From assembly GCA_963575745.1 (NCBI GenBank), contig CAUYUJ010000163.1, positions 62,001 to 117,397 on the forward strand: a DNA stretch of 55,397 bases, given 5' to 3'. The position numbers and the translations under genes are program-made. Shown piece by piece: positions 17,008 to 52,100 of the stretch (position 1 is the stretch's first letter; every line of letters begins with the position of its first letter). The notes under the pieces were generated by a model that saw only the letters and a list, made by a program, of their open reading frames with translations, was not told the DNA's origin and searched no databases. Origin of the DNA: Prorocentrum cordatum (Eukaryota).

Positions 17008-17202
17008 TCGGGGGCGGAAAAGAGGGGGGTGACGACTAGGGGAGGGTGGATGTCATGGCGGGGGCCATGATGTTTCCCCAGATCTCATGGCGCCTCTTCT
17101 TGTTTCATTCTGTCCCTGGCCCCCCCGCTGGGCCGCGCACACGCCGCCGGTCATGATTTGCAACCCCCCCCTCTTGGACACCCCCCTCTTGGCCGCTCCC
17201 GA
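17008..17202. mobile_element. ~194-bp MITE, termini TCGGG...CCCGA, 5-bp TSD (copy 1)
   Basis: TIR tcgggggcggaaaagaggggggt / accccctcttggccgctcccga; TSD gggac on both sides. Confidence 0.9.
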
Positions 17203-17964
17203 GGGACTCTGGCATCCAGATCTATGTTTTGTGGTCCGGCTTGCTGTGCACAGGGCAGACCAGCAGTTACGCTGCACGTCCGTTTGAACAGTATGGGCTG
17301 TCATCTCATGCGCTGAACACTGTTGAACACTGTTGAACACTGTTGAACGAATCGTGGGCGTTGCATATCAGCATGCCGATGGGGGGACTCTGACGTGTAG
17401 ATCCACGTTCCGTGATCCACGTTCCGTGGTCCGACAAACTATGCTTGGTGGTCCCCAAACGTGGTGGTGAGAACACCCGGTGGTGAGTTTTGGGCGATTT
17501 GGGTAATGGTTTTCGAGCGCTGGCTGGCCCAGGAAACGCAAAACCTCGTGGCGACCGCGCGTCCCCAAACCCGGTGGTGACCCAGAATTATTTCTGTGGG
17601 GAATCGGGGTCACCACCGGGTGTCTCACCACCTGGTTTGGAGACCACCAATATGCGCAGGACAGGCCGTCACTTGCACTGCACATCTCGCTGCCGTGCCA
17701 CTTTCGCCCTCGTCGTCCTGGCCCTCCTTGTCCTGCCGGGAAGGACGAGGAGGAGGCGGAGGAGGAAGTGGAGTGTGGAAGATGACGCGGAGGCAGTGGA
17801 AGGGGAGGAATATGAGGAGGAGGAGGAGGATAATGTGGGCAGTGGAGGAGGAGGAATATGAGGAGGAGGAGGAGGAGGAGGAATATGAGGAGGAGGAATA
17901 GGAGGAGGAGGAGGATAATGTGGGCAGTGGAGGAAGGAGGAGGCAGGGGAGCGAGAGGGAGAGG

Positions 17965-19998: not shown

Positions 19999-20153
19999 GG
20001 AGGGACAAAAAACACAGACACAATTAATCGTCGATTCCCAAGAATATATGGGAAAGTATGGGAAGTGGGGGGGAAGACAAAAACCCAGAACATATGAGAA
20101 AATATGGGGAATCTTTTTATTTGTGTGCATTTATTTGTGTGTCCCAGGGCCCC
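19999..20153 (+). mobile_element. ~150-bp dispersed element GG...CC with TTCA-like 4-bp flanks (Kolobok-like, non-autonomous); copies 50330-50484, 52654-52796, ~52913-53076, ~36281-36436, interrupted copies ~21563/30449 and ~38343/38735
   Basis: Shared body ggagggg-aaaaaacacagacac...tatgggaagtggggggaagac...gtgtcctggggcccc; ttca flanks both ends of the 50330 and 52654 copies. Superfamily is inferred. Confidence 0.75.
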
Positions 20154-21345
20154 TTCAATCCCTGCTGGCGCCCCCACTCCACGAGGGGCCAGAGCTGGGG
20201 GGCATGGCTCCTCCTTGGTGAGAAGCTCTCGTGGCTGGCCATGCGCTCCTCGGTTGCCTGCTGCGGGGCAGCTTCGCTGCCGTCGTTCGCGGCCCCCTGA
20301 GCTCGTGGAGGCACCGCTATACTCTCCAGCTGCGGTGATAAAAAACAGGGGCCGAGCACAACGCTGCTTAGCTTGGTTTTGGCCCCTGTTCTGTTTCTCG
20401 TGTCGTGTTTCGCTGTCGTTCCATCGCGCCGTCCGTCTTTAGACGTTCGGCCCCGTTTCGGTGTTCGTTCTGAAGCGCCAGCGCGTTTTCTGCGTCGTTG
20501 TCCTCGGTCGCCGGAACAAGAAAAGCCCTGGCCCTGGGCGCCCACAGGGGAAGGCAGCAGCAGGAGCCTGGACACAATATCGATCGCCGACTCCTCGACG
20601 AAGAGAAATCGGTCATTGAGCATACAGTGGAAACCCATGCCAAGAAACACCCTGCTTACCTCCAGGGTGCCCTGGGTTTCTTGGGTTCCGATGGTCTTGC
20701 TATGGGAAGCGCGACGTTCCCATGCCCAAATCAGTGGACGTCCTGGGGTCTCAGGGCTGGGTTTCGTGTCGAAGCTTTCTTGTGGACTGGCCCCCACTGC
20801 GGCAGGCTCGCGTCGTGTCGACCAGCGGCGACCCCGCCAGCGGCGTTCAGCTTTGAACGCGGCAGGCGACCCAGAATCGTTCGACGTGGAACGACTCGGA
20901 CGTTTCGGAGCTGGCCGATCGTTCAGAGTTTGAACGATCCCCGCGGTGTCAGGAACCGACGCCGGAGTCGGCACGACACGAACCTGCCGTAAGCTTCCGG
21001 ACGTCTGCTCGGACCTCTTGGGTCCACGTTGGGCCCCCTCTCTGCCCGCAGGTGCGGGCAGAGAGGGGGAGGAGGAGGAGGAGGAGGAGGAGGAGGAGGA
21101 GGAGGAGGAGGAGGAGGAGGAGGAGGAGGAGGAGGAGGAGGAGGAGGAGGAGGAGGAGGAGGAGGAGGAGGAGGAGGCGGAGGAGGAGGAGGAGGAGGGG
21201 GAGGGGGAGGAGTCCGAGGTGGCCGCGTTGGGCCCCCTCTCTTGGCGGCGGCTCTGGCGCCACCCCTCGTGCCCGCGGAGCGCGCTCTTGGGGCAGGGGG
21301 CCTGGCGCCGATCCAAGAAGTGCCGCGCTGACCTCCGAAAGTTTG

Positions 21346-21539
21346 TCGGGGGCGGAAAAGAGGGGGGTGACGACTAGGGGGGGGTGGATATCATGGCGTG
21401 GGCCATGATATCTCCCCAGATCTCATGGCGCCTCTTCTTATTTCATTACGTCCCTGGCCTCCCCGCTGGGCCGCGCACATGCCGCCGGTCATGATTTGCA
21501 CCCCCCCCTCTTGGGCACCCCCCTCTTGGCCGCTCCCGA
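21346..21539. mobile_element. ~194-bp MITE, copy 2
   Basis: Same family as 17008; TSD gtttg. Confidence 0.9.
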
Positions 21540-21702
21540 GTTTGTGCCGAGGTTGTTTTTCTGGATGAGGGGGGGGGGAAACACACACATCGGCACAAGG
21601 AATCGTCGTTTCCCCCGAAGACGTGGGAAACTATGGGAAGTGGGGGGGGAAGACGGAAATCCCCCTATATATAACATGTATACATGTATATGTTATATAT
21701 TT

Positions 21703-21733
<31 letters not shown>

Positions 21734-22211
21734 GCTCGGTCCCCCCCCAGCGACCCCCCAGCGCCTATGATCTTCATCCTCCTCCACGTTTGCAGAGCCA
21801 GGCCGCCTATTGGTGGCGAGACTCTGGGTTTCTTATTGAACGTTGCCTGATAAGCCCACCTCTTTTTACTCTCCTTCTATTCGTTCATTCTCTTCCTTCG
21901 CCCCCTGCATGCCCCCTCCTCTCGCTCCTCGTCACGCTTCTCCTCCCCTCTCCTCTTCCTCCTCCTTTTGCTCCTCCTCCTCCTCATCGTCATCCTCCTC
22001 CTCTTCCTCATCTCCCCTTCTCTTCCCTCGCCCCTTGTATGCCGTCCTACTCCTACTCCTCGTCGCGCTTCTCTTCGCCCCCCCATTCTCCTCCTCCTCC
22101 TCCCCCTGTCATTTCTCTGTCCCTCTCTCTTGTTTTGCCCCGCTCGTTTTCGCCCGTCATTCTCACTTCTCTTCGTCATCAGCCCCTCTTGGCTCAAGTT
22201 GGCTTGTCATC

Positions 22212-22914
22212 ATGCCTGCCTCTTCGGAGGAAGCGCTTGACAGGAAGCGCACTGCCAACAGAAACAGGGCGCGGGTCAGAGCGGTCAAAAACTTCCTCAA
22301 CAAGCCTTGGGTGAGGGAGTCGTTGAAAGAAACGGTGGCGCAGTTCAAGTGGAAGGCACACAGGGCCCTCTGCGACGCGCTAGCCGACGCAGCCAAAAGC
22401 TCCAACAAGTGCCTAGACCGCCTCTACGAGAAGAACAGGGTGTTGAGGGGCTTGTTTTCCACCACCACCCATATGTTGGAGGAGGAGGGGGAGGGCGAGG
22501 ATAATGAGAAGGCGGGCCCCCTCTCCCTCCATTGTATGGTAGTGGTAGTGCAAAACAGAACACGCCCACCAGGTGCTCATGGAGAAACTGGAGGCGACGG
22601 GCAAGAGAGAGCTGGAGCTGGAGGGCGAGCTCAAAGGCTTGCGGGGCGCGAAGCAGAAGCTGACTGCTGAGAACGGCAAGCGGGCGCAGCTCCTGGGAGA
22701 ACTTCAGGCCGAGCTTGACCTAGCCAAGACTGCCCTCGCCACCTTCCGCTCGAAGCAGGCGCGCTTCAACCACTGGGCGACGCCCAAGGACAAGAAGCGC
22801 TGGGCCTGGCTGGCCCTGGGCCCCAAAAAGTGGACCGCGAGGGGCAATTCATCCTTGCGGGATGGTTGCATGGGCGCACAGCGAGGTGCGCGCGCGTTCT
22901 CGCGGCCCCGCTAA
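22212..22914 (+). CDS. Two-exon basic coiled-coil protein (189 aa), unknown function
   Basis: Exons 22212-22439 and 22573-22914 are joined in frame by a GT-AG intron; heptad-like L/E/K pattern; ttggctcaag ends 13 nt upstream of the ATG. Confidence 0.65.
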
Positions 22915-23723
22915 CGAAAGCAAATGCTGACGCATTATAGTCCGCCTGTTGTCATGTGCGTCGGCATTGCGTCAGCGCCGAGCGAAACCAAACCGAACTT
23001 CACCACCGTGGCCGCAGCAGTGGCCAACGAGGGGGATCTTATTCAGGATCCCCCCATCTCACGACAAAGAAGACCGGCGTTGGCGCGCTGGTTTGAAACG
23101 CGGTTTGGCGACGTGCGATTATAAACGAGACAGCGTCGCATGTCGTTGCCGTGCCCACAGCAGTGGGCGTGGATATTGAATAATATCCCCCCATCTGACG
23201 CGTGCCTACTTAGCTAAATGTATATGGTAGACTGTAGCTAGCGACGACGACGGCGTCGTACGAGTCGCTCGCCTTTGCGCGGGCGCTGTGCCAGACACTG
23301 GCGCGCGCTCTGGGATTGCCAGCGCACGTTGCGTCAAAACCAAAAGAGAACGCGTTGGGCCGTAACCAGAAGAGGACGCTTTGGGAACCCATTTTTGGGG
23401 TTCCCATGTCTGGCGGTTTCGCGAATGACATTAACCTTAAGTTTTTCATATCCGCAAGGGCTTCGCCCCCTGCCGCCGGCCCCCTCTCTCGGAGAATGGG
23501 CCATGGAAGAGCTAAGTCATGAGGCTTTGGCGCTGTCGTGCAGCAGTGTCGGAACTTCATGCGAGGCCGATTCGCAATCGGCAAAACCAACTGATCACAA
23601 GAGGGGCTACCGCACAGGGCGATTGGTAAGACGTGTATGGTTTACGAGCTTGGTTACCACACCTTGGGATTTAAGGGCCGAGGGAGTACTCGCAGTTTGG
23701 GTTACCACGCCTTGCGATGGATG

Positions 23724-24495
23724 TGCGTGAGGGGTGGCGCCGAATTTCAGAAATGTGGCAAATCCATTGTGTTTTTGGACCCTGACCCCGCGGATCTGCG
23801 TGAGGGGTGGCGCCGGATTTTCAGAAATGTGGCAAATCCCTTGTGTTTTTGGACCCTGACCCCGCGGATCTGCGTGAGGGGTGGCGCAGAATTTCAGAAA
23901 TGTGGCAAATCCCATGTGTTTTTGGACCCTGACCCCGCGGATCTGCGTGAGGGGTGGCACCGATTTTGAGAAATGTGGCAAATCCCATGTGTTTTTGGAC
24001 CCTGACCCCGCGGATCTGCGTGAGGGGTGGCACCGAATTTGAGAAATGTGGCACATCCCATGTGTTTTTGGACCCTGACCCCGCGGATCTGCGTGAGGGG
24101 TGGCACCGAATTTCAGAAATGTGGCGAATTCCTTATGTTTTTTGACCCTGACCCCGCGGATCTGCGTGAGGGGCGGCACCGGATTTTGAGAAATGTGGCG
24201 AATCCCATGTGTTTTTGGACCCTGACCCCGCGGATCTGCATGAGGGGTGGCACCGAATTTCCCTGACCCCGCGGATCTGCGTGAGGGGTGGCGCCGGATT
24301 TTCAGAAATGTGGCAAATCCCTTGTGTTTTTGGACCCTGACCCCGCGGATCTGCGTGAGGGGTGGCACCGAATTTCAGAAATGTGGCAAATCCCTTGTGT
24401 TTTGGCGCGGATCTGCGTGAGGGGTGGCGCCAGATTTTGAGAAATGTGGCAAATCCCATGTGTTTTTGGACCCTGACCCCGCGGATCTGCGTGAG
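23724..24495 (+). repeat. 73-bp tandem array, ~10-11 units
   Basis: Unit tgcgtgaggggtggcaccgaatttcagaaatgtggcaaatcccatgtgtttttggaccctgaccccgcggatc; starts at 23724, 23797, 23870... Confidence 0.95.
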
Positions 24496-25078
24496 TGGTG
24501 TTGATTTCGAGCCCCCCCAGCAATTCAGACAACGCGCCCAGGTGAGGCTAAAAGTCTTGTTTGCCCCCCCCCCCCCCCCTCGCGCGGTCAATCAATTAGT
24601 TACAGTAACCAGCAAGAAGTCAACTAGTTACAGTAGCCAGCAATAAGCAGAACTGTAACACTGGAAACTACAAACTACGACTGGCACAGGAAACTGCGAA
24701 TCACGTGCCTCGCAGCCTGGTGGCCCCACAAGGGGGCCGGCGGATATTAAATCATGTAGTCGTCGCCACCGCCTCCGCTCGCCTTCCTGCCCCGTCCGCT
24801 CCCTGTTGCCACTGGCGTTCAGGCCTTCCAGGGTGTTCAGACCCCCAGTAAGGTTCCCCGATGCAGGTTTGATCGCGTGGCTTTCGAATATGCGTTTGTG
24901 CCGCGCGCCATGCCTGGCCGCGTTGGCGACGTCGTTCCGCCCGACGCGGCGCGGCGCAGGGCGGGGCGCTTGCAGGCTCAGCGCTTGGCTGCTGGCGAGG
25001 ACTAGCAGGCGAAGGGCGGGGGGCGGGGAATGGAGTTTTGGAATGCATTGCCCCGTTTGCATCTAGTTTGAAAAGCAA

Positions 25079-25745
25079 TTGCGTTTGCCCCAGGATCGGT
25101 TCAACGTGTGCGTGTGGCCCGTGAACGTTGAAGTGGGGGACAGCGGCGACCCGTTCCTGACCCCTGGCTTTCGCGGCAACCGGTGGGTGGCGAACGATCT
25201 CGCGTTCGGCGACGTCATCGTCCGTCAGTGCATGTGCACGGAAGTTGTGGCCCTTTGCGTTGGATGCGATTATCGCGTGCGCGCCTCGTTAGCCGCGGTG
25301 CCGCGATCGTTGTTCTCCTCCGCGATCAGCCCGATCGGTCTGCCGAAAGCGGTTGGAGATCGACAGCCCTCTCCGCGATCGGCTCGAACGATCTGTCGCG
25401 GATCGTGGCCCGCTCGATAGCGACGCGGGTTTCCGACCTGCGGCGGGCTCCGAGGGGCGCGCCTGCACTGTGGCTTTCACTTCCCCTGATTTCCCTGGGT
25501 GGGGCGACGTGGCGGAGGTTTCTTGGACGACGACTTGGGGCTTCATGGAGCGGGTCGCGATGGCGTCGCTCATGCTGCCCCGCCATCGCGACGTGGTTTT
25601 CGACGTGGGCGGCGGTGAGCTGTCCAACCGACAGCGCGTTGGCCCGCCATTCGGCCCGCGCGCTTCGGCGTTCCGCTACTTCCGAGGCGCAGAGGGTGAG
25701 CGGCAGCATGGCGCTTCTCTTGGGCGATTATTTTCTACGCGGTAA
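25079..25745 (+). pseudogene. Probable frameshifted cargo gene, unknown function
   Basis: Two overlapping ORFs (25079-25420, 25353-25745) with globular, non-low-complexity composition. Confidence 0.35.
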
Positions 25746-26000
25746 GAAAGGGCGCGCGCGCGCGCGCGCTGAGCACCGCGGGATAAGATCGGAGTTCGCG
25801 TTGGCGGTTCGCCCATTTCCTTTGACAGACGGCCGTTGCCCGATCTCCCCCCCCCCCCCCCTAGTAGTCGTAGTCGTAGTCGTGGTCTCAGAAGTCACAG
25901 TCGGGCAACCAGTCTTTTCGCTGCGCCCTGACAATGCAGCTCTACGTTGGCTCAAGACCTGGCAGCGCGACTGCCGCGTGGCCTCCGATATCTTTCGCCC

Positions 26001-28156
26001 GTGGCTCCCAAGGGAGTTGCCGAGGCGCCCGACGTGCCGGCGCAGGGGGCGAAGTACTTGGAGCTGTGGCTCGGGAAGGCCGATCACTCGAGAGGAAGTG
26101 TGGAACCATGCTAAGACTAAGGAGAAGGCCGTCGTCCTCGGCAAGCCCGACGTCCAGGGCGACTTGAGCCGCGACCCCGTCGGGTCCACGTCGTTGTTCG
26201 GCCTGCCATCAAGCAGTGGGTGTACAAGCCGAGGCAATGCACTCGGCGCGTTGTCGACGTGATCACGGGCGCCATTGGCTTGGGCGCCGTGGCGTGGGAT
26301 GCTGTGAAAAAAAAGATCATGGCAGTGGGCAGGCGCAAAGTCTTGCCGCCCCCGCTCGGCTACAATGACACTGAGGACGAGCTGCCTTGCACGCTGAACA
26401 TCTTGATTTGCAAGCATCCCTCAGAACCAGGGCCACGCGTCATTGTGAAGCACTTTTCGTTTCCCGGAAAGGGCCACGCCATGTGCGCGGTCAAGGAGAA
26501 CCTCGTCCAGGGCGACCCTTGCACGATCGATTGCAAGCCAGATGTGTTCAACAGTTTGCGCGCGTTCCAACTTATGATCGAGCGGCTCGGCGGGTTATTG
26601 TTCCGCTATTGGAGGTTCGAACGCCGAGGTTCGCTGAGCGTGCCTCTCGGAGGGCGACGTGGCGCAGAGGAGGGGGGGGGTTTGCCGACGGGATGCAGCG
26701 CGTCAAAGACGAGGCGCCGCGCGCGAATTGGGACGGCGAGCAGTTGTTATGGGTGGAGCAGGAATACGTCGACCCAGACTTCCCGCTCCAGCACGTGAAG
26801 AAGGAGTTCGTTTGCAAGGTTCTCCAGATTCTCAAGGACCGCGACCACTTCGCGGCCAAGGAGACGTACTACCCCTTGTTGAAGGGGGGCATTCGGCCCG
26901 AGTACCAGCCCGTCGTTGACAAGATCATCCGCGCGCTTCTCGGCAGCGCCGCCCTCCTGATTGGCGAGGCCAAATTCGGGGAGACCCCTCTGATGTATAT
27001 TATGGCCATGGCGCTGGCCAGGTACCATGCAGACTGCGCGAACGAGGCGCGCGGCCGCGCGGTTGCCGCCCTAGCAGTGCGCGTGGCTTCCGAGATGGAC
27101 TTCTTCAGGGGAGAGGTCAGAGGGATTTGAGGATTATGACCATTGCACTTCCGCACCTTGGTCGGAAGCGCAACCCTGTTTCGCCAGAGCCCTCTGGAGG
27201 TCGGAGGGGCGCGCCCCCCCTGCGTCTTCGACGACGGGGGCCTGGCTGACCAGAGGCCCCGCGTGCTGAAGGCATTCTTCGACCCAACCCAGGTCGAGTC
27301 GAATGTATGCGTCCGTTGGGGCGCGGCTAAACTCAAAAGGAACCAAGCGAGCTTCGGCAGCGACAACGAGTATGATGCCGCCGCGGAGCCGACGCCGACT
27401 GATGGGGCCTTCGCCGCGACTTCAAGGAACAAGGAGGCCCGCACTACGTCCTACCACGTCGTGATGGTCAAGCCCGCGTTCCCAAATAACCTCTCCCTGA
27501 GCAACATTGGCGCCATGCTCAAACGTTGCAACATCCTGCTCAACACGACGCAGAACGTTTACTTCCGCCCAGCGGGCGCGATCGCCGTCGTGGAGAAGGT
27601 GCCCCTCAAGGGCGGCTACATCACGCCTGAGGCGGGCACGTGCCTCCAGAACTTCTTGCGGAACAACGCGCGGCGCAACCAGGAGGACTTCGACAACCTC
27701 TTGGCTTTCGAGAAGCGCGACATGTTGAAGCTCATGGGGGAGGCCAGAGCGCAGTATAATCAGGGCGGGGCCGAGCCCGCCGAGGAGCCCGCCGCGGAGC
27801 CCGCCGCGGTTTCGCCGCAGCCCGCTGCGTCGCCCAATCCCGATGGGGAAGAGCATGGCTTGGGCTCAATGTTCCAGGAGGAGGGGGAGGGCGCATTTGG
27901 CTTCGGCGGCGGCATGGGCGCCGCGCCAGAGGCGATGCCAGCCCCCCCCCCCCCCCACCAAGCCAGTGAAGGCGGGCCAGGCGTGTGGAAGCGCAAGTTG
28001 AGCGGCGGCGGCGGAGTCATCAATCTGTGTTCTCCGTCACCGAAGAAGGTCCGCGTGGGCGCAAATAAGTCTCGGGGGCAAGAGAAGGCCAAGCTTGACG
28101 GCTTGATCTCGCAGTTCTCGGACGGCGTGGCAAGCGGCGCCGCGTCGAGCTCGTGA
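26001..28156 (+). pseudogene. Large protein with a C-terminal SF3-like P-loop helicase; frameshifted
   Basis: Walker A-like ALLIGEAKFGET (G..T 26963-26986, GAG for AAG), DFFRGE|VG across GT-AG intron 27116-27199, Walker B CVFDD (27221-27235), motif C-like ..SDN and AMLKR. The 5' part (GTG-APKG at 26001) is broken by several frameshifts. Confidence 0.6.
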
Positions 28157-28429
28157 ACTTGCGAGGGGAGGCGTCGGCAGGGGCATGCTATCATGCGCGT
28201 TCGCATTATTAACATTCCATTGTTTGTGAGGTGATTTGCATCTGGCCGCGGAAATGCTGGTTCGCGCAACTTGTTCTCAGTCCAGCGATCGTCTTATCAT
28301 CCCGTTGTCTTGGCTTCCACATATGTCAAGAGGCCCGCCGACCATGTCCGCGGCGATTTCGTCTCGAGAGGTTCGCTGTTCAGCTGCCGAACGCGTCGCG
28401 CGGCCCGCGCGAGCTGCGAGCTGGTGGCG

Positions 28430-29490
28430 ATGGGCAAGGCGTTGCCTGCTGCCAAGAGGGGCAAGGCCCGCGCTGCCGCGCAATCTCAGGTTACCGCCAG
28501 GAGGCCAGCGGCGGCGCCCTCCGTCTTGAAGATGCCAGCGGCTGCCGACCAGCTCGGCGCGCCCAAGAACGTGCCGTGCGTGCGCCGCGGGGCCCCGACC
28601 AAGAATATTTGCCATGCGCAGGCCACGTGGGCGAGGTCCCTCAAGGATTTCGTGCACATGCCCGCGAAGACTATCATCGACAAGCTGACGCACGACAAGA
28701 TCCTCCCTGCTTGGAAGGGCGTCGCGTGCCCCTATTGCGGGAAAGGCACTCTTGGCTCTCTGAAGCACTACGCCGATTCGAATGGAGGGTGGGCCTACCG
28801 CTGCAACAGCAACGAGTGCAAGCGCCGCGTGCCCCCGCACGCTTTCCACCCCCTCTTCAAGTGCGGTGCGGGGCAGTCGCGCGTGAGCTTGGCAGATCAA
28901 GCTTCTGTGCTCTTCTGCTCAATTGCGAAATGCTCGCAGACTTCCGTGCGTTTTCTCTCGCGGAAGAATCATCAGTTCACGGGGGGCATCTGCGAGTCCT
29001 TGCACGCGGTGCGCGCCAAGAGCGTGGTCCAGCACGAGAAGAACATCAAGTTCGGCGCCGGCTTGCCCTGGGCGGACGTAGAAGCCGACGAAGTGGACAT
29101 CGCCAAAGGAGAAGACCCCAACACAGACACTGCGACTGACAACCCTATCATCTGGGAGCAATGGGGCGGCATGGTTCAGCGCGGAGACCAGAAATCCCTA
29201 GTCTTGTTCAAGCTGGACCCAGCGAAGACAGAGGCGGGCGCCAGGCCCAGGCCCGACCCGCAAGCGCGATTGGAAGCCTCTGGCCTACAAATGGGCCCAC
29301 AAGCGCAACATCGTACTGCACGCGGACGGAGCTGCGGAAACACCTAGGGACTAAGAAGACAGTGAACACCAAGATGCTGACTGACAAGATCCGCTCATAC
29401 CAGTGGTTGTACTGGCACAGGGGCGAGGATTTGTGGCTGGCAACAGGGAAGACGCTGGAGGAGGCCTTCCTCAAGGAGCACTGCCAGTGA
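28430..29490 (+). pseudogene. IS1595/Merlin-type DDE transposase, frameshifted and internally deleted
   Basis: Zn-ribbon CPYCG...YRCNSNEC, VEADE (29078-29092), WGGMVQRG, then in another frame RAPGPGPTRKRDWKP...NIVLHADGA (D 29325-29327), then a third frame to stop 29490; the third catalytic region appears missing. Confidence 0.78.
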
Positions 29491-29529
29491 GCGGCGAGCG
29501 CTGTAGTCCCCGAAGAGTGCAGCACAACG

Positions 29530-30150
29530 CCTGCCACGCAGCGTTTCCTTGCTCCGAGGCCCATGCGCGGCGTTTCGTTGATTCCCAGATGAGATAACTT
29601 TACAAACCTGTCATACACAGCGCTTTCTTCGTCCGAGGCCACGAAACGCTGTGTATGACGTTTTTTTTGGGGGGGCCTGGTCTTGGTATCGACGAAACGC
29701 TGTGTATGGCAGGTGCTTCTAGTTTTTCTGGTTTTCAGGTGCCGACAAAGCGGGGGGGGGGGGGTGCGGTGGGGTGACGCCGCGGCGAGCATTCCAGCTC
29801 TAGAAACCAGAAAAAAACAAAAACACCTTGTCATGCAGTGTTTCGTTGATTCCCAGACCAGAAAAACCAAACACAACTTGTCATGCACAGTGTTTTCTTG
29901 CTCGGAGACCACGAACCGCTGTGTAAGTAAGTTTTTTTTTTTTTTTTTTTTTTTTTTTTGTGGGGGGGGTTCTGGGTTTTCATGCGCCGACAAACAAGGG
30001 GGGGGGGGGGGGGGTGCGGTGGGGTGAGGCCGCGGCGAGCATTCCAGCTCCAGAAACCTGAAAAAACCAGAAAAACCTGTAATACACAGTGTTTCGTTGA
30101 TTCCCAGACCAGAAAAACCAGAAAACATGTAATACACAGCGTTTCGTGGC
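29530..30150 (+). repeat. Degenerate ~250-bp subterminal repeats of the large element
   Basis: gtttcgttgattcccaga recurs at ~29572, 29840, 30091; ggtgcggtggggtga.gccgcggcgagcattccagctc at ~29763 and ~30013. Confidence 0.8.
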
Positions 30151-30346
30151 CTCGGCCGAAACCGATATGCTTGCGCGCACGGTGCCCGTGACGGATGGGC
30201 CGAGCGGATGAGTTCGTCAGCCTGGATGGCAGGCCAAAGGTGAGTTGTGAAAAAAACGAAGGGCTTCAACGAAGCGATTCTGTGGATTCGTGCTTTGGGC
30301 GCTCTGGGGGGTCGCTGGGGGGGGGGGGGGGGGGGACCGACCATGC

Positions 30347-30391
<45 letters not shown>

Positions 30392-31502
30392 AAGACGATG
30401 GGGAATCCGCGGATTTGTGTGCATTCATGTGTGTGTGTCTCTGGGCACCTTCACTGGAGTCTTCCGCCCCTCTGTTCCCTCCGTCCTTCCTGTACTTTGG
30501 CCCCTCCTTCCTGCGCCTTTTCGCCTTTTACCCGCCTGGTTCTTTCAGGGTTCTTTTCTCCTCGCTTGCGCATCCTCCCTGCTTGCCTTCTCGATCTCCT
30601 CGAGCAGTCCATGCTCTTGTCGCTCTCTTCCCTTTTCCCCCCCGCCTGCGCTGCTTTCCTTGCTTGTTGTCTCAGGGCTCTTCTCTCCTTGCCTGTGTGT
30701 CATCCCTGCTTGCCTCCTCGATCTCCTCGGGCAGTCCCTCTTGCAGTCGCTCTCCTTCCTTTCCCCCCCCTGCCTGCCTCTTCCCCTTCTGCTCGGCCTG
30801 CTCGCCCTCCCTTGCCTCGCATATCCGCTCTGCTCCTTCCTCCCGGCCGCTTCTCCCTCCCGCCGTGGCCCTCCCGTCCCCTCAACGTTGCTCCAGGAGG
30901 AGGAGGATGATGATGATGAGGAGGAGGAGGACGAGGAGGAGGACGAGGAGGAGGAGGAAAAGGACTTGAAGTGATATGGCTTCGGGGCGCCTTAACCCCA
31001 TGGGCGGAGCCAGTAACCTGGTAGTACCACCCTTGTACACTTCAAGGTCAGGACCTCTCTGGGGCAAAGCGAACATCTGTCTGGAGGGCGTCCCACAAGA
31101 CAACGCCGGCTTTGTTCAACAAAGCTTGCCCTCCCTCGAGTGCGACAGCCCAGCATGAACGCAGCGCCCGATGGGATGGTGCAGTCAGGGCGGATAGAAC
31201 CTGAAGGCCCCTATTGGTTCAAGCTGGATTGTCGGAAAGACCGAGGAGGGTCCGGGTCCTCAGAATGAACCGAAACTCAAGTAATTTCCCCCCCCCTCCT
31301 CTGAGCATGGGCTAACCTGCTCATGCTTCGCAAAGCCTTTTTGGGTTCCTCTTAGGACCCGCTCGGGTCCTCGTTGGCCCTTCTTCAGGGCTCCATGGGT
31401 GGTGACTGCCGCGCCCGCAACGACAATCTGGCCTTCCCACGGCCGCCTAATCGGGTTCAAGTTTTCACATGCCAAGGAAGGACCCCCCCATTTCTGGGTG
31501 GG

Positions 31503-36122: not shown

Positions 36123-36456
36123 TCAGCCACGCGCGCAAGGGGGTGGGGGGAGGGGGGGGGCTTCTTCGAAGCACCCCTGCTTCTTAGAAGGCGCGGGCCT
36201 GTCCATAGATGTAAGGCCCCGCCCTCTAAGAAGCAGCCTGCTTCTAAGAAGCCCCCCCCCCTCCCCCCACCCCCTTGTTCAGGAGGGTAAAAAACACACA
36301 GACACATTTAATTGTCGATCCCCAGGAAACTATGGGAAAATATGGGAAGTGGGGGGGAAGACGAAAATTCAGAAAATATGGAAAAATATTGGGAATCCTT
36401 TTATTTGTGTGTATTTATTTATGTGTCCTGGGCCCCCCCCTTGCGCGCGTGGCTGA
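36123..36456. mobile_element. MITE with TCAG...CTGA termini and 5-bp TSD, containing a nested ~150-bp element; related copy ~52079-52572
   Basis: TIR tcagccacgcgcgcaaggggg / cccccttgcgcgcgtggctga; acgtt on both sides. Confidence 0.75.
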
Positions 36457-38476: not shown

Positions 38477-41106
38477 GCATCATCATCAGCATCATCATCA
38501 TCATTATCATCATCATCGTGTCCGGGTGCTACAGCTATCGTTCGGTTATTTCGGCTCTTCGGAATATCGAATAAAAAATGTGGTGCTACGATATCGCTGG
38601 GGGGGTTCTTAAATGCTTCCTGGGGTTATGGTAAACCATGGATGGGAGGGGGGGGGGAAGACACAAGCCCAGAAAATAGAGGGAAATAGAGGGAATCCTG
38701 TGATTTGTGTTAATATTTGTGTGCCCCAGGGCGCCTTCATTTCATACGGGTTGATTGTAGGAGAGGCTGGGCTTGGATGAGGGGGAGGGGGGGCAGCAGG
38801 GAGTCGACGAGGGCTGCTTCGATCGGGCCGTCTCCCTCGCTGGCTCGGGTGCGGATCCCGAAGATTTCGAGGACCTCTCTTGCAAAGGGTTCCGAGGACC
38901 CCCTGACCTCCCAGGCATTTTTTTGGTTCGTCGCAGCGCGGCAGAGGCGATCCGTACGCGCGCTCTGGTATGAAGTCGGGCCTGTCCCTCTACAGGAAGA
39001 ATAACCCAAAACAGTAAAAACATAGTCTGGGGACGACTTTGTTTCTCTCTCTCTCTCTATTTTTGCTGATGTTTGGTGTATTGCTTGGGGTGTATTTTAG
39101 AGTTGTCGTCGACACTCCACCTGTAGGCGGACATGCCCGACCTAAGTCCAGTGGGCCAGGAGCGGGCGACCTGCTTGTCGGGCTGCGAGGGCCCAGGCCT
39201 CCTCTAGATGGGGTCGGCGCAGACGGGGCCGCGGAGGATCGCGCCGCACCGCCGAGGCACCGCCGACGCGGCTCGACGCGGAGCCCGCCTTTCGGGGGCG
39301 GACAGGACCCTCAACAGTGACGCGTCGATTGGTGAATGGTCCGTTTTCGCTCTTCGAGAGGGCGCCGCGGCCGCGATTTTCCGGGCTTGCGCCCGCCAGG
39401 TTTGGGCCTCAGGTCGTTCTCACTAAACCACGTTTTACTGAAGGGAGGTCTGTCCATCCCCGAGACTTGCTTCACGCCGACGTCGCCGATGCATCCGGTG
39501 CATCGCCGGTGCATCGCCGATGAAATCGCTGATGTGTCGGCGATGCGGCGCGGTCCTCCGGCCCCATCTGCTCCGACCCCATCTACCCAGACCCCCGACG
39601 TGATGATTTTTTCATTACGTCGACCCCCAGAGGTCCCGACCCTTTCTCCACGACCGGCTTTGCATCCCGACTCGTTTTTCGACGCTCCCGAGGCCCGGTG
39701 AGGGCCCCCGGAGGCCGAGAATGCAGAAACACCTCCCGTCATATGATTTTTTCATTGCCCGAGGGAGTCTGGGTAGGAGGCCTCCCAGAAGGGGGGAGAA
39801 GGCGGCTGCGAGCGGTCGCGGAGAGCGGGCGGGGGAGGAGGGCGCCCACCGCACCGAAGAGAGCCTCGGCAGGAGCGGCCGGGGGGCAGCCAGGCGCTGC
39901 GGAGGCGCCCTGGCAGTGGACGCGGGAGCGGCACCTGCCACGCCTCCCAGAAACATCCGACGCCGTGTTTTTGTTCGCAGCGCGGCTTTTGACTAAGTTA
40001 CACTGGTGTATGGCCTCGAGGGCGCGAACCTGGTGTAATTTGCAAAGGTTTCTGGCCTCGGGGACGCGAGCATGGCGTAATTTGCGGAAGCTCCTGGCGT
40101 CGAGGACGCCAACGTGGCGTAATCTACGGGAGTTTATGGCCCCGGAGGTCTAGGCCCCTTCCGAGGGGCCGGCTCTTCATCCCGAGTCGTCTTGGACGGC
40201 CCCGAGGCCCGGCGAGGCCCCCTGGGAGGACCACGCAGCCCAAGATGTGGGGAAGCTTGCCGTCGTGTTCTTTTCGCAGGAGGGGAAAAACACAGAGACA
40301 CAATGAATTGTTGACTCCCAGGAAGATATGCGAAAATATGGGAAGTGGGGAGGAAGACGAAAACATTGAAAATTTGTGAGACTATGGAGAATCCTGGTAT
40401 TTGTAGTTATTTTTTCAATTCGACGCCCCTGAGGGGGCAGACACCGCCGCCCCACCATCATTTTTGGAACGCGAAGTTTGAGACGGCCCGACAGGGTCCA
40501 AAACGACGTGGAAAAGGTCCGAAGAAAGGCCCCCCAGAGGGGCCCAAGAGGCTCCGAAAACGGCCCAACAGGGTACCCAAAGGTATCGAAACAGCAGACG
40601 AAACCGAAGAGGGATGCGGAGAGGCAGAAAGCAGCAGTCCCACTTAGTTCTGTGGCCTCAGAAGCGCCTCTGGGGACCCCCTGGGCGCGCCCAAGACAGC
40701 CCAAAAAGGCGCCTAAAGGCCGGCCAGAGGGCCCAAGATGGGTCCGAGAGGTTGTCAGGACCGTCGTAGAGAGCATGCCCAGGTTCTAAGATGGCCGCAA
40801 GAGCCAGCGGGGATGCACGGGAGCTCCGAGAGAGGCGCAAGGAGGAGTGCGAGAAGGCCATAATCACCAACATCCTATGTGTTTTACGCTGTTTCTTGCT
40901 TGTTGGGGTGTTCTGGTGTATGCGGCTCGAAAAGACGAGGAAAGGCATTCGGAACGGCTCAGAGTGGCCTGAAGGAGGGTGAAAACGAGCCCAGGAGAGC
41001 CTCAGGAGGCCCGAAAGCCGGCCCAGTGGGCGCCTGGAGATGGCGGCCAGAAGGCGCCCCGGCCGCAGCGGGGGCCACCGGGCCGGCGGAATGAGCGAGG
41101 CGTGGG

Positions 41107-41300
41107 TCGGGGGCGGAAAAGAGGGGGGTGATGACTAGGGGGGGGTGGATATCATGGCGTGGGCCATGATATTTCCCCAGATTTCATGGCGCCTCTTCTT
41201 GTTTCAATACGTCCCTGCCCCCCCCGCTGGGCCGCGCACATGCCGCCGGTCATGATTTGCACCCCCCCCTCTTGGACACCCCCCTCTTGGCCGCTCCCGA
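41107..41300. mobile_element. ~194-bp MITE, copy 3
   Basis: Same family as 17008; TSD gtggg. Confidence 0.9.
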
Positions 41301-41699
41301 GTGGGGAGGACCCTAGGAGGTGTTGCGAGGGCTCAGAGGCAGGGGTAGGTATGAAAGGCGCGCTGGAGAGAAGACTTACACACAGCACTACTGAAGACCC
41401 TGCTGTGGAGCTCACACGCCGTACCTGTTGGGGCTTCGGATCGCTTCGCTCATTCCGCCGTCCCCTGTCTCATCCCCTTGGTGCGTGGTGGTGTGCGCGT
41501 GCCCAGGGGGACTGGCAGGTCAGGCAGGAACTTCCGTCAGGAGATCGATGGAGATGCGGGTTCCAAGAGCGCTCAACAAGGCTTCTGTATCACCGAAGAG
41601 CGCCAGTAGATCGCTCGAGAGGGCGCCAAGACGGCCGAAGAGAGCTCCAGCAGAGGTCCCAGACTCGCTCAAACAGTCCATGCGGGTGCAAAAGTTCTC

Positions 41700-49152: not shown

Positions 49153-52100
49153 ATGGGGGTGGCCCCTGGCATGGCCTGCCGTCGCCTGCCCCCGGACGTC
49201 GCCAAGGGGGCGAAGGGCCTAGCAGCTCCCGCTCTCCTCGTTGCGGCTCTGCTGTCGCTCCTCTACCTGGTGGCCAGGTATCTGAACACGTACCAGGCTT
49301 GGTCTGTCCTGTGGATGGCGGGGTGGTTCGTGGGCGTGTGGGCGGCCTTCGTGGCCGCGCGGGCCGTGCGGGATCTCGTCGGCCTGGGTGGCTGGAGGGG
49401 CGCTGGACTGCGCAGGAGGCTGCGGCTCTGGGTGTACATGGCGGGGATGGCAGGCACGAGGAGCACCGGAGAGGTGGTGGACCTCGTGGTCACGTGTCTG
49501 TCGCTGGCCTCGTGCGCCATGTACGTCCTCGAGACCTACATGCCCTACCTCGCGATAGACACCGGCTGGCTGGTGGCGGAGGCGGCAGTGTCCGTGGTGC
49601 TCTTGGTAGACTACCTCTTCCGCTTCTTTCTAGCCGCTGACGGCTTGAGGTACGTGTTCTCGTTTGTCAGTGTCGTCAACGTCCTGACCATCGCGCCCGT
49701 GCTGGCCAACACGTGGTACCATCTCAGCACGCCCGGGTCCAGCACTTGCGGGGGGACCGCCACCGCGGATTCCCCCGCGGAACTCACCTATTTCAGGCTC
49801 CTGAGGATGCTCCGGGTCCTCAGAGTACTCAGAGCGCTCAACCTTTTGAGGAGCGCGCCCACAGAAGACCTGAGGCGCGAGGTGTTCACGCTGGTGTTTA
49901 TATAAGGGGCGGCGCCATATGCCGTCCGCCCTCCAGGTCAGCTTCGGGCTATCATGGAGGCATATTTGGGCTCTCTTTTGAGATCGTTGGGCTATCTGGG
50001 GGCCTGGGGGCATGTTTGTTTGGGGCCTTTGGAGGCTACGCTTGGGCAAGCTTGGGCAATCGAGGGGCGATCTCGAGGTGTCTGGAAGCGACCTTGGAGC
50101 CTCCTGGCATCTTGGTTGGGGGCATGCTGGGGCTTCGCCATCTTCGGTGCCCTTGGCCTTGTGGAGAAGTATTGAGACCATCTTGGTAAACCTAGGCGGC
50201 CTTGGGGCCCTCTGGGGCTGTCTTGTGGTAATGCTTGGAACATGTTGGGGCTCCCTCCTTGGCCTCTGAGGCTCTGAGGGCTGTCCCCAGGCCTTATGAG
50301 CTGCTTTAGCTGTATGCTGCTGTCCTTCAGGAGGGGGAAAAACATATAGACACAATTAATCGTCAATCCTCTGAAAATGTGCAAAAATATGGGAAGTGGG
50401 GGGGAAGACGAACATCCAAAAAATATGGAAAAGTATGGGGAATCCTGTTATTTGTGCGTATTTATTTGGGTGTCTCAGGGCCCCTTCAGTCTTTGCGGGT
50501 ATCCTGAAGAAATTTGGGGCGGCTGGGAGCTTGGCTCACAACCCCCCCCTGGTGGCTTTGGTTTTTGCGCCGTGTGCCCACGTAGTAGGCAGCAGCAAGC
50601 AGACAGGATTAGAGAGACAGGAAGCAGGAGGAAGGAGACAGGACAGGACAGAGAAGACAAGAGATATCAGCAAGACAGAAGCTCAGCAATGTCTCTCTCA
50701 GCCTGGTGCCCCAGGGTGGACTGGCGGACTTCCGTGGGCATTGTGTTCGCGTCTGCTGGCTTGTACCAATGGCTGACGAACAGCGACCGTTGCTTCAGCT
50801 GTAGTTACAGAAACACCATGTCAGACGAGAGTTACGACGACTACGTGGAGGTTGATGAATGCGTGCACTTCCACTGGGCTTTGTACTGGTGCACAATATC
50901 TGCCCTGAACCGGCCACGCTTGGAAATGAACAATGACCTCACCGTCTTGATGGTGATTTTCCTGGTCGCCATCACATGCGTCGTGATCCCCCTCCAGCTA
51001 AGCAAGATCTATACAGTGATGCAGCAAGGCAGCAAGTCTCAACGGGCAGAGTACATTCCTAGCTCAAGTGAGGCAAGGCACGTCGTGTTCACGGGTCACT
51101 TGGAGCTCGCGGCGCTGAACATGCTGTTGTACGAGTTTTTCCATCCAGATCGCTTCGAGCAGGCAGTGCAGGACCTTTGTGGGCCCCGGAAACGGCAGGG
51201 CCGTTTTTTCACCGTTTCCCAAAAAATGTCTTTTGAAAATGGAAACGGCAAAAAAACGGCGACCAGAAACTGCAAAAAAACGGCTCCAGGATTGGAACCG
51301 GCGTCGGAACCGATCAAAAATCGGCAAAACGGAACCGGTAAGAAAACGGTCCTGTCGTTTCCAGGGCCCACTAAGTGCAGGACGTCGTTCTGCTCTTCCC
51401 GAACAGCCTCGACCACGGCGTGGAGGTGCTCCTGTCTCACCCGGAGTACGTGGGCCACGTGACCTACGTGCAGGGCTCCCCCCTGCGAGAGAGCGACCTG
51501 GTTCGGGCGGGGCTCCACGCGGCGACGGGCGTCATCCTGCTGTCCAACAAGGATCCGCTCCTCGTTCCCCTTCTCCTCCTCCCCTCCTCCTTCCCCTCCT
51601 CCCCCTCGTTCCCCTCCTCCTCCCCTCCAGCGGGGCCAGGACGAGGAGAAGTCCGTTCCGCAGCGTCCCGGAACGGTCTCCTGGGTATCGTTCGGACGTT
51701 TGCACTTTTTCTTGGCGGGGATTATTAAGGGGAGCATCCTGGACCATCCTGGGAAGAACACGCACGAAAAAGGAAAAAGCACAGGGAGTGGACTTCCGAG
51801 CGATGGCCAGTTTCAGAGCGTTCCAGATTGCTCTGAGAAGGCCGCGGCGCCCGAGGCGTCCTCCAGAGCCGCCGCAGTTCAGAGATTCTCGATTTACCCT
51901 CGCCCGATGGTGTCCTCGTCCTGGCGCCGTCTTACAGGAGGCCGCGGATCCCAGCTGGCACGACTCCGAGCTGGTGGCCTGTGCGCAGTCCATGAAGGCT
52001 CTGTGGCTGAAGCTGGAGTCGAGGCGACCGCGCGAGGATCTACAATCCGTGCTCAGCCGGTACAGCCGCCCGCGCATCTCGGCCACGCGCAGGGGAGGGC

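Follow-up and report, generated by a model that had tools for sequence, protein, structure and literature searches.

The stretch of DNA analyzed here, referred to as the window, comprises 55,397 bases of the dinoflagellate Prorocentrum cordatum (contig CAUYUJ010000163.1 of assembly GCA_963575745.1, positions 62,001 to 117,397 of the forward strand), has a G + C content of about 60% and is eukaryotic in character. Within it, a block of 8.7 kb (21666-30389), whose inverted ends are rich in G/C and bordered by (TA)n on either side, interrupts a dispersed repeat of about 160 bp. Every recognizable gene in this block lies on the + strand, and two of them form its core: a Rep-like gene, encoding an N-terminal domain similar to HUH endonuclease and origin-binding domains (OBD), a helical linker and a P-loop ATPase resembling superfamily 3 (SF3) helicases, followed by a gene for a transposase related to the IS1595 and Merlin families. 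Based on the evidence described below, the block is very probably a decayed, non-autonomous copy of a dinoflagellate family of terminal inverted repeat (TIR) transposons that carry a Rep-like and an IS1595/Merlin-related gene on one strand.

The Rep-like gene (26022-28156, + strand), delimited by tblastn with the proteins P0001 and P0005, is decayed in the window. One base has been lost near 26205 and two further changes lie beside a G-run at 26640-26690, where the frame breaks could be assembly errors. Its Walker A motif (26963-26986) reads GET instead of GKT, and Walker B is found at 27221-27238. Two in-frame TGA codons were considered as a mark of a dead gene and rejected, since both lie inside an 84-bp GT..AG intron (27116-27199) that was recognized by length match to P0001 and P0006. 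When the intron is removed the window reads FFRGE/VGGARPPCVFDD, equal in length to P0001 FFRGEVGQRWVPCIFDD and P0006 FFRGEVGEPGAPCIFDD; the sequence designated P0004 is the window gene read with X at the two TGA codons. The intron borders repeat GGAG/GTC(A/G)GAGGG, which recalls the "introner elements" of P. cordatum in the available text of its genome paper (PMC10666404).

The transposase gene (28430-29517, + strand) encodes an IS1595-like zinc-ribbon protein of the DDD type and is decayed as well. The window open reading frame (ORF) contains the zinc ribbon CPYCG..CNSNEC and the motif DVEADEVD, and continues past a frame break at about 29229-29234 with RAPGPGPTRKRDWKPLAYKW..VLHADGAA. Near 29333, about 71 residues preceding the C-terminal SYQWLYWHRGEDLW are missing, and the lost part holds the third catalytic Asp. 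One Logan contig from each of the runs X1, X2 and X3 carries two extra letters after 29229, suggesting that the frame break is private to the window copy or its close kin. As the transposase is devoid of its third catalytic region and of an intact frame, and the Rep-like gene contains at least three breaks in addition to the Lys-to-Glu change in Walker A, this copy cannot move itself, in agreement with the decay noted in a preliminary description made from the sequence.

On the left, a TA-rich tract ending in (TA)n (21666-21733; period 2, 35.5 copies in the TRF analysis) precedes the left TIR, GCTCGGT-C8-AGCGACCCCCCAGCGCC (21734-21765), and on the right the TIR (30298-30346) is followed by an (AT)n tract (30347-30389; TRF period 2, 22 copies, 95% matches). 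By pairwise alignment the 32 nt of the left repeat pair with the reverse complement of the 49 nt of the right one, the gap in length corresponding to indels and a longer C-run. After the TA tract, the window ends begin with GCTCGGT and GCATGGTCGGT, and both read GC(..)GGT, C-run, AGCGACCCCCCAG(AG)CGCC. The pair was recovered by self-BLAST (E 6e-12), and its 17-nt core CCCCAGCGACCCCCCAG occurs exactly twice in the 55,397 bases, in inverted orientation at the two ends, against an expectation of 0.08 from shuffled sequences, none of 100 of which reached two occurrences. Regular expression patterns for the left and the right end gave one match each in the window, at the ends of the block.

Beyond the TA tracts lie the two halves of the interrupted target repeat, 21545-21665 on the left and 30390-30480 on the right, both assigned by alignment of the joined flanks. 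When joined, these flanks align unbroken across the junction to three uninterrupted copies in the window, at 19999-20157 (72%, E 6e-18), 50330-50488 (71.5%, E 2e-16) and 36282-36426 (70%, E 4e-13), with a local score of 96; in 500 shuffles, scores averaged 16.4 and did not exceed 26. This continuous alignment to uninterrupted copies evidences that the 8.7 kb between the flanks entered as an insertion, which may have grown after entry. The paralogues read A(G/A)AA(A/C)ATAT at the insertion site. Inverted ends of about 30 bp, (TA)n on both sides and outer flanks that rejoin into one dispersed repeat, all proposed in the preliminary description to define a single insertion, were therefore recovered. 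Among the matches listed for the contigs of four runs, none was an empty-site contig joining 21665 to 30390, and scans of 21000-31000 detected neither Rfam families nor tRNAs.

The association of the two genes is repeated in relatives of the block. Three P. cordatum gene models, P0001 (1344 aa), P0007 (694 aa) and P0009 (1202 aa), contain a Rep-like part followed by a transposase, the order of the window. JGI metagenome contigs were scanned with the transposase alignment, giving 91 relatives from which 80 loci were kept; a Rep-like gene was detected in 31 of these, located upstream on the same strand in 30, downstream in one and on the opposite strand in none. If the count is restricted to loci in which 2.5 kb or more precede the transposase, 25 out of 31 carry the Rep-like gene. 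The intergenic gap between both genes ranges from 113 to 1315 bp, with a median of 602. As order, strand and spacing are maintained in most relatives, and inside the ends, the two genes belong together. The preliminary description had suggested testing several copies for a shared gene order together with shared termini; further copies were found to have both, an outcome favorable to its reading. The sole locus with the Rep-like gene downstream (L057:29-2886) has it on the same strand, where it may start a neighboring element. A Rep-like protein (P0061) and a transposase (P0206), both from ENA, each have a longest contig of 223,634 bases, which is perhaps one and the same. A complex prediction between residues 45-648 and 960-1344 of P0001, with alignments unused and controls not run, scored 0.00 and gives no verdict.

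Four of the metagenome elements (L006, L033, L045, and L052) are two-ended and show the (TA)n-G(G/C)..C6-8 theme of the window termini; they range from 4.6 to 7.0 kb, the two others measuring 5.2 and 5.6 kb. Inverted pairs enclose both genes in L006, L045, and L052, and left- and right-end motifs were located by regular expression at the two ends of L033; L052 has little room beyond the two genes. In L006, L045, and L052, (TA)6-7 is followed by CGGTCAC7 or GGTAC8 at the left and by CTCACTC6 or GCTAC7-8 at the right; after the TA tract, GGTAC.. is present at the left of L045, L052, and L070, GGTCAC.. at the left of L075, and GCTAC.. at most right ends. In 21 loci the right-end pattern (six or more G, up to 12 nt, then (TA)4 or longer) follows the transposase, with 2 loci having it elsewhere, and in 8 loci the left-end pattern is upstream, with none having it elsewhere, with 1 and 0 occurrences in 413 kb for the wrong-orientation controls. 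The TA tracts at right ends are 11-21 nt long, mostly 11-13, and are equal on both sides where pairs were compared (13/13 nt in L045 and L052, 15/15 nt in L006). Equal tract lengths suggest that most of the TA tract is set by the element, or is a fixed duplication, and is not a pre-existing microsatellite. Since TA repeats are self-complementary, the TIR and a target site duplication (TSD) are not separable at these ends.

The relatives of the transposase constitute at least 84 clusters (E ≤ 1e-3) in the length band searched; those that are named belong to Polarella, Symbiodinium, Durusdinium, and Prorocentrum, one of them is called "ISXO2-like transposase domain-containing protein" in UniRef, and the closest to the window copy shows 50% identity. 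In an alignment of 47 members, D288, D368, and D429 (the last in GTQIIDRxW; P0002 numbering) are invariant, and C172, C175, C195, and C198, which form the CxxC..CxxC zinc ribbon, nearly so. The NCBIfam model NF033547 (IS1595 family) matches 24 of the 47 members at E ≤ 0.01, with a best value of 1.6e-9; in P0002 the match (5.9e-5, 23 bits) covers profile positions 15-169 of 215. Among Pfam models, PF12762 is the family matched by most members (5 out of 47 at E ≤ 1, best 0.03), followed by PF12760 (2 out of 47 at E ≤ 1). Pfam gave no match for the window transposase ORF or for P0001-P0003, and PDB sequence searches with P0001, A1, and A2 returned P-loop or zinc-ribbon noise only. From these profile matches and conserved residues we conclude that the window transposase belongs to a distant, DDD-type branch of the IS1595/Merlin superfamily; the IS1595-type assignment of the preliminary description is borne out by NF033547 and by the nearly invariant cysteines.

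The family of the Rep-like protein comprises 257 representative proteins or clusters at E ≤ 1e-3 when P0004 was used as query. The best relative of the window protein is P0005, from P. cordatum (69% identity), and a search of viral contigs with P0005 gave no relative. In 41 sequences, G319, G324, K325, D376, D377, R404, R416, and N421 are nearly invariant, and D385, D386, R413, and N430 are invariant in alignment A4; the conserved order is G..GK, DD, R, R, N, R, in which we take G..GK to be Walker A, DD to be Walker B and the Asn to be that of motif C. The AlphaFold model of P0005, with a predicted local distance difference test (pLDDT) of 88, presents an alpha/beta N-domain (residues 1-205), three helices and a P-loop domain in which a beta-hairpin is placed between the Walker B strand and the strand ending in the conserved Asn. 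With the full-length model, Foldseek retrieved 278 matches from BFVD at E ≤ 1e-3 (best 3.3e-8, 410-560 aligned columns); in the top 50, in which many rows are unnamed, all named rows are Rep or replicase proteins of CRESS or other circular single-stranded DNA (ssDNA) viruses. The nearest named clusters in the ESM Atlas combine Rep_OBD with RNA_helicase (0.96 and 0.95, Bacillota), followed by Reps of Cressdnaviricota. Against the PDB, the best Foldseek E value was 1.1e-3, and the rows include MCM, Vientovirus Rep, AAV Rep68, poxvirus D5/E5, E1, and B19 NS1.

When the N-domain was folded alone (pLDDT 90.5), the best 16 of 48,161 PDB chains were all of the replication-initiator or HUH type (Z 5.2-3.5, two chains with Z ≥ 5), among them the E1 DNA-binding domain, nanovirus and circovirus Rep, SV40 OBD, and Vientovirus Rep, as well as SIRV1 ORF119, B19 NS1, RepB, and the HUH transposase TnpA-REP (rank 16). 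Based on these predicted models, there is good support for the whole protein being Rep-like, and weak but coherent support for an HUH/origin-binding fold in its N-domain. The SF3-like helicase announced in the preliminary description thus holds by fold and language-model features, and not by any Pfam model.

In addition to the two core genes, the block contains a CT-rich low-complexity tract (21890-22110) between the left end and a coiled-coil gene (22212-22878, + strand) that is broken midway and extends over two frames. By tblastn with the intact 175-aa ORF of locus L028, residues 1-88 map to 22212-22472 (56%) and residues 78-174 to 22576-22878 (55%). Relatives of this gene are few, including one P. 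cordatum protein at 85% identity, and the search of the loci showed that, L028 excepted, it is absent from the other 79. From left to right, L028 (58.9% G + C) displays an AT-rich stretch, GCCCGC14TGTGATCAT, a CT-rich tract and the coiled-coil gene, which the transposase follows directly, suggesting that the coiled-coil gene and its CT-rich leader, in the same arrangement as in the window, are a recurring left-end module of a Prorocentrum-type lineage. A bZIP-like reading of this gene (basic region plus coiled coil) was discarded; Pfam gave no bZIP match.

A further segment, 23202-24786, contains the 73-bp tandem array (23719-24512 by TRF) and appears to be an abundant repeat in its own right, probably nested within the element and not part of its cargo. 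In Logan contigs of runs X1-X3, its summed depth is in the thousands, as is that of a 197-bp repeat located outside the block (21345-21541), and most bins of the gene parts show single- or double-digit summed depth, contig depth not being equivalent to copy number; block parts with little or no contig cover in the four runs were left out of this reading. It is this pile-up of contigs, vs the few on the genes, that leads the array to be read as a separate repeat. Array units of 73, 41, 115, and 63 nt were recognized in it, together with a 28-nt doublet at 24592-24647, and many contigs stop inside it at about 24745. To its left are two similar short palindromic motifs (23035-23066 and 23170-23200), each followed by ATCCCCCCATCT(C/G)ACG. 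Nothing was recognized in 24787-26020 by Pfam on the ORFs or by tblastn with 242 collected proteins, which matched the window only within 26022-29517, and neither search supported the ORFs between 22915 and 26020 as genes.

At the right end only, subterminal repeats occupy 29560-30160, with units of about 250 bp and sub-repeats of 35-50 bp, one copy being inverted. Contigs in three runs skip 29519-29885, so that the number of right-end units varies between copies. Contigs in X1 and X2 also connect 30249 with the earlier position 29418 through 18 other letters, indicating that other copies hold a different right-end arrangement, perhaps in tandem. The preliminary description had listed, on one strand, a coiled-coil gene, the 73-bp array, ORFs of no assigned function, a P-loop gene, the transposase and subterminal repeats. 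Of this inventory, the strand, the three named genes and the subterminal repeats (about 250 bp and 50 bp) persist, whereas the ORFs at 22915-26020 are unsupported as genes. The cargo proposed there is retained in part: the coiled-coil gene recurs beside the same type of left end in L028, but the 73-bp array, although present, belongs to an unrelated abundant repeat.

Several side observations concern the surroundings. To the left and to the right of the block, outside it, are long (GAG)n/(AGG)n microsatellites (21063-21212 and 30895-30958), CT-rich tracts occur just inside and outside it, and the window contains 20 runs each of C and of G that are at least 8 long. The 197-bp dispersed repeat is present at 21345-21541, 41106-41302, and 17008-17203, in copies that are 94-96% identical. 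It has inverted ends (21346-21395 vs 21490-21539, 82%), and short direct repeats seemingly flank each copy (TTTGT at the first, GGACTC at the third). Extremely abundant in the contigs of three runs and located outside the element, it looks like a miniature inverted-repeat transposable element.

For intact members of the family, the transposase would be expected to excise and insert the element by a cut-and-paste reaction at the inverted ends. The Rep-like protein would act as an element-encoded partner, its N-domain probably binding DNA at the element ends and its ATPase opening the easily melted TA tract. Such opening may either make the ends or the target ready for the transposase or allow the excised element to be copied.

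The family of two-gene TIR transposons is real, apparently undescribed, and represents a new architecture. Various observations weigh against it, or against parts of it. Six loci (L038, L040, L042, L054, L075, and L077) have no Rep-like gene despite at least 2.5 kb upstream of the transposase; six out of 31 means that the gene is common and not indispensable for every element. L028 also lacks it, and L040 and L075 seem to be short elements or to carry the transposase alone. Many loci come from few metagenomes and some are near-duplicates (L048/L049, L022/L024), so that the loci count as copies and not as independent species. Of the 56 loci in which 300 bp or more follow the transposase, 21 show the strict right-end motif. 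With respect to the target site, the paralogous empty sites of the window are too diverged for a duplication to be read, and in L045, L052, and L006 the sequences outside the TA tracts have nothing in common from which a TSD could be read. At the protein level, all matches to NF033547 are below its curated cut-off of 75 bits. Pfam gave nothing useful for ten window ORFs and P0001-P0004, and out of 34 Rep-like relatives none was matched at E ≤ 0.01 except for three marginal matches, of which a single one was to Parvo_NS1 (0.0099) and covered the P-loop only; otherwise none of PF00910, PF01057, PF01719, and PF02407 matched. Compared to solved structures, the resemblance of the modeled ATPase core is weak and not specific, SF3 not being singled out: in VIA, PilT/DotB, PCV2 Rep, AAV Rep68, IstB, RadA/RAD51, and DnaC are tied at Z 8-9. 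The similarity of the N-domain is likewise weak (Z ≤ 5.2; best BFVD E value 0.023, with Reps as named rows). The HUH pair is absent, with K147 in 32 of 36 and H148 in 24 of 36 sequences and no second His/Gln two residues on, and the column of the catalytic Tyr contains Y in 19 and F in 5 of 36; P0005, P0001, and the window have I or L at this position. The motifs were placed on the N-domain model from the aligned ranges of the fold matches. As the window lineage lacks the catalytic Tyr, its N-domain would more likely serve to bind DNA than to nick it, in the manner of E1 and large T antigen.

Four other explanations were weighed. That the block is composite, a Merlin-like element and an endogenized Rep-bearing virus or plasmid lying side by side or nested by chance, might be suggested by the unrelated abundant repeat that it holds (23202-24786, at least one) and by the existence of transposase-only forms. 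It is nevertheless highly improbable, since order, strand and spacing are repeated in 30 loci and in three P. cordatum gene models, and both genes are enclosed by one TIR pair in the window, L006, L033, L045, and L052. We consider it just as far-fetched that the two genes are an immobile, domesticated host pair kept for a cellular function. Merlin-related ORFs without detectable TIRs or TSDs are preserved in Symbiodinium and Perkinsus, for which the available text of PMC8101967 raises domestication, and many relatives of the present genes have long open frames; against this, the termini of the family are conserved and correctly placed and oriented, three uninterrupted copies of the target repeat show the block to be an insertion, and the copies of the element are multiple, diverged and often broken.

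The two remaining alternatives assign a different role to the ATPase. It would be rather improbable that it is a transposition regulator of the IstB/TnsC/MuB type, choosing or shaping the target DNA and switching the transposase on. In its favor, the ATPase and transposase genes are tightly linked on one strand, many transposases depend on dedicated AAA+ subunits (PMC11208146, available text), and IstB reaches Z 8.4-8.6 over 145-147 residues, tied with Rep ATPases and many others. Conversely, all named rows in the full-length BFVD top 50 are Rep or replicase proteins, the ESM features favor clusters combining Rep_OBD with RNA_helicase, and the list of matches of the N-domain is made up of initiator and HUH domains. 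These same features, which give the protein the domain order of a replication initiator, allow the tentative suggestion of a transposon-replicon hybrid, in which the element, once excised, would be replicated episomally by the Rep-like initiator helicase that it encodes; although doubtful, this would make the TA end tracts an unwinding element and the subterminal repeats binding sites for the initiator. Meltable, self-complementary (TA)n is found at both ends of the window element, L006, L045, and L052, the right-end motif is present in 21 loci and the left-end motif in 8, and iterated repeats adjoin the right end of the window copy. However, a joint of right end to left end is absent among the matches listed for the contigs of four runs, the missing HUH pair and the lack of Tyr in the window lineage make rolling-circle initiation by nicking unlikely, no polymerase or primase gene was seen among the window ORFs or in tblastn scans of the block, and compact relatives such as L052 leave no room for subterminal arrays. 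The self-replicating or virus-derived nature put forward in the preliminary description is hypothetical.

Eukaryotic DDE transposons are generally described as one-enzyme elements, and the Rep class is the engine of viruses, plasmids, Helitrons and Replitrons; a family with both enzymes in one TIR element, present in several dinoflagellate lineages, is a new architecture and a testable case of cooperation between a transposase and a replication-type motor. Through this family, two sizeable sets of "hypothetical" dinoflagellate proteins (257 Rep-like clusters and at least 84 transposase clusters) can be named, and its terminal signature, (TA)n-G(G/C)..C6-8, can be used to annotate elements in genomes where repeats are poorly classified. 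More speculatively, and with a low probability, the family might consist of cut-and-paste transposons that bring their own viral-type replication initiator, with the Rep-like helicase loading at the (TA)n-flanked ends and copying the excised element. If so, it would form a living bridge from IS1595/Merlin transposons to plasmids or ssDNA viruses that encode Rep proteins, and might drive the expansion of repeats in the very large genomes of dinoflagellates.

In the literature searched, to which Repbase and subscription journals do not belong, no description of a transposase paired with a Rep-like helicase was found, consistent with the statement in the preliminary description that the element matched no described family. 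Literature joining an SF3 helicase with a DDE transposase was limited to Teratorn and casposons. The word "transposase" is absent from the P. cordatum genome paper (PMC10666404), a preprint with a broad survey of DDE enzymes mentions neither helicases nor dinoflagellates, PMC10288648 uses neither "dinoflagellate" nor "DDE", and "helicase" has no occurrences in PMC8101967.

Merlin and IS1595 elements are the closest known systems on the transposase side. The likeness consists of a remote but significant similarity of the catalytic domain, of the possession of TIRs, perhaps including the GG that left termini often show after the TA tract, and of an N-terminal zinc ribbon, which most IS1595 groups possess, IS1016 being excluded in the text available (PMC8101967). 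The differences are two core genes instead of one, a DDD instead of a DDE triad with the curated cut-offs missed, and termini made up of (TA)n, G(G/C).. and a run of C6-8, with right ends that start with GC. Merlin elements have a terminal GG and a TSD of 8-9 bp (PMC8101967, accessible sections), confirming the contrast drawn in the preliminary description; here such a duplication is not demonstrable, as both flanks are TA repeats. According to the same sections, the Merlin-related ORFs of Symbiodinium are mostly without recognizable TIRs or TSDs (PMC8101967).

On the Rep-like side, the Rep proteins of CRESS-DNA viruses and plasmids share the same domain order of HUH endonuclease, oligomerization helices and SF3 helicase (PMC10288648, text available), provide the best fold matches and the nearest language-model clusters, and have nuclease/origin-binding domains that the N-domain resembles. 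The present protein, in contrast, has about 580-700 residues vs 300-450, shows K-H in place of HUH, misses the Tyr in the window lineage and matches no Pfam Rep or helicase model, and its gene is located within a DDE-type TIR transposon and not in a small circular genome. The similarity to papillomavirus E1 and SV40 large T antigen is weak: the top match of the N-domain is the E1 DNA-binding domain (Z 5.2 over 118 residues), the OBD of large T gives Z 4.3, E1 helicase is among the Foldseek PDB rows, and in these proteins too a nuclease-dead N-domain is joined to an SF3-type motor. Origin melting and polymerase recruitment are not indicated for the present protein.

With respect to the pairing itself, IS21 (IstA/IstB), Tn7 (TnsB/TnsC) and Mu (MuA/MuB) also link a DDE-type transposase to the gene of a P-loop ATPase. 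These systems are prokaryotic, however, and the ATPase of the present family possesses an N-domain of the initiator type and finds its best matches among viral Reps. The gene order of IS21 differs from that of the element. AcademH, a DDE transposon with a helicase gene, offers a precedent, although it belongs to another superfamily and has another class of helicase.

Helitrons and Replitrons are, like the family described here, eukaryotic mobile elements with a Rep-class protein, but in the available text of PMC10288648 this Rep is their transposase and they have no TIRs and no DDE enzyme, whereas the present element combines TIRs with a DDD transposase. Their motors differ as well, the helicase of Helitrons being SF1B and Replitrons having none, vs the SF3-like ATPase of this family. 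Finally, although Teratorn is a 180-kb fusion of piggyBac and a herpesvirus, it provides a precedent for a DDE transposon joined to genes of the replication type (PMC10175614, available text).

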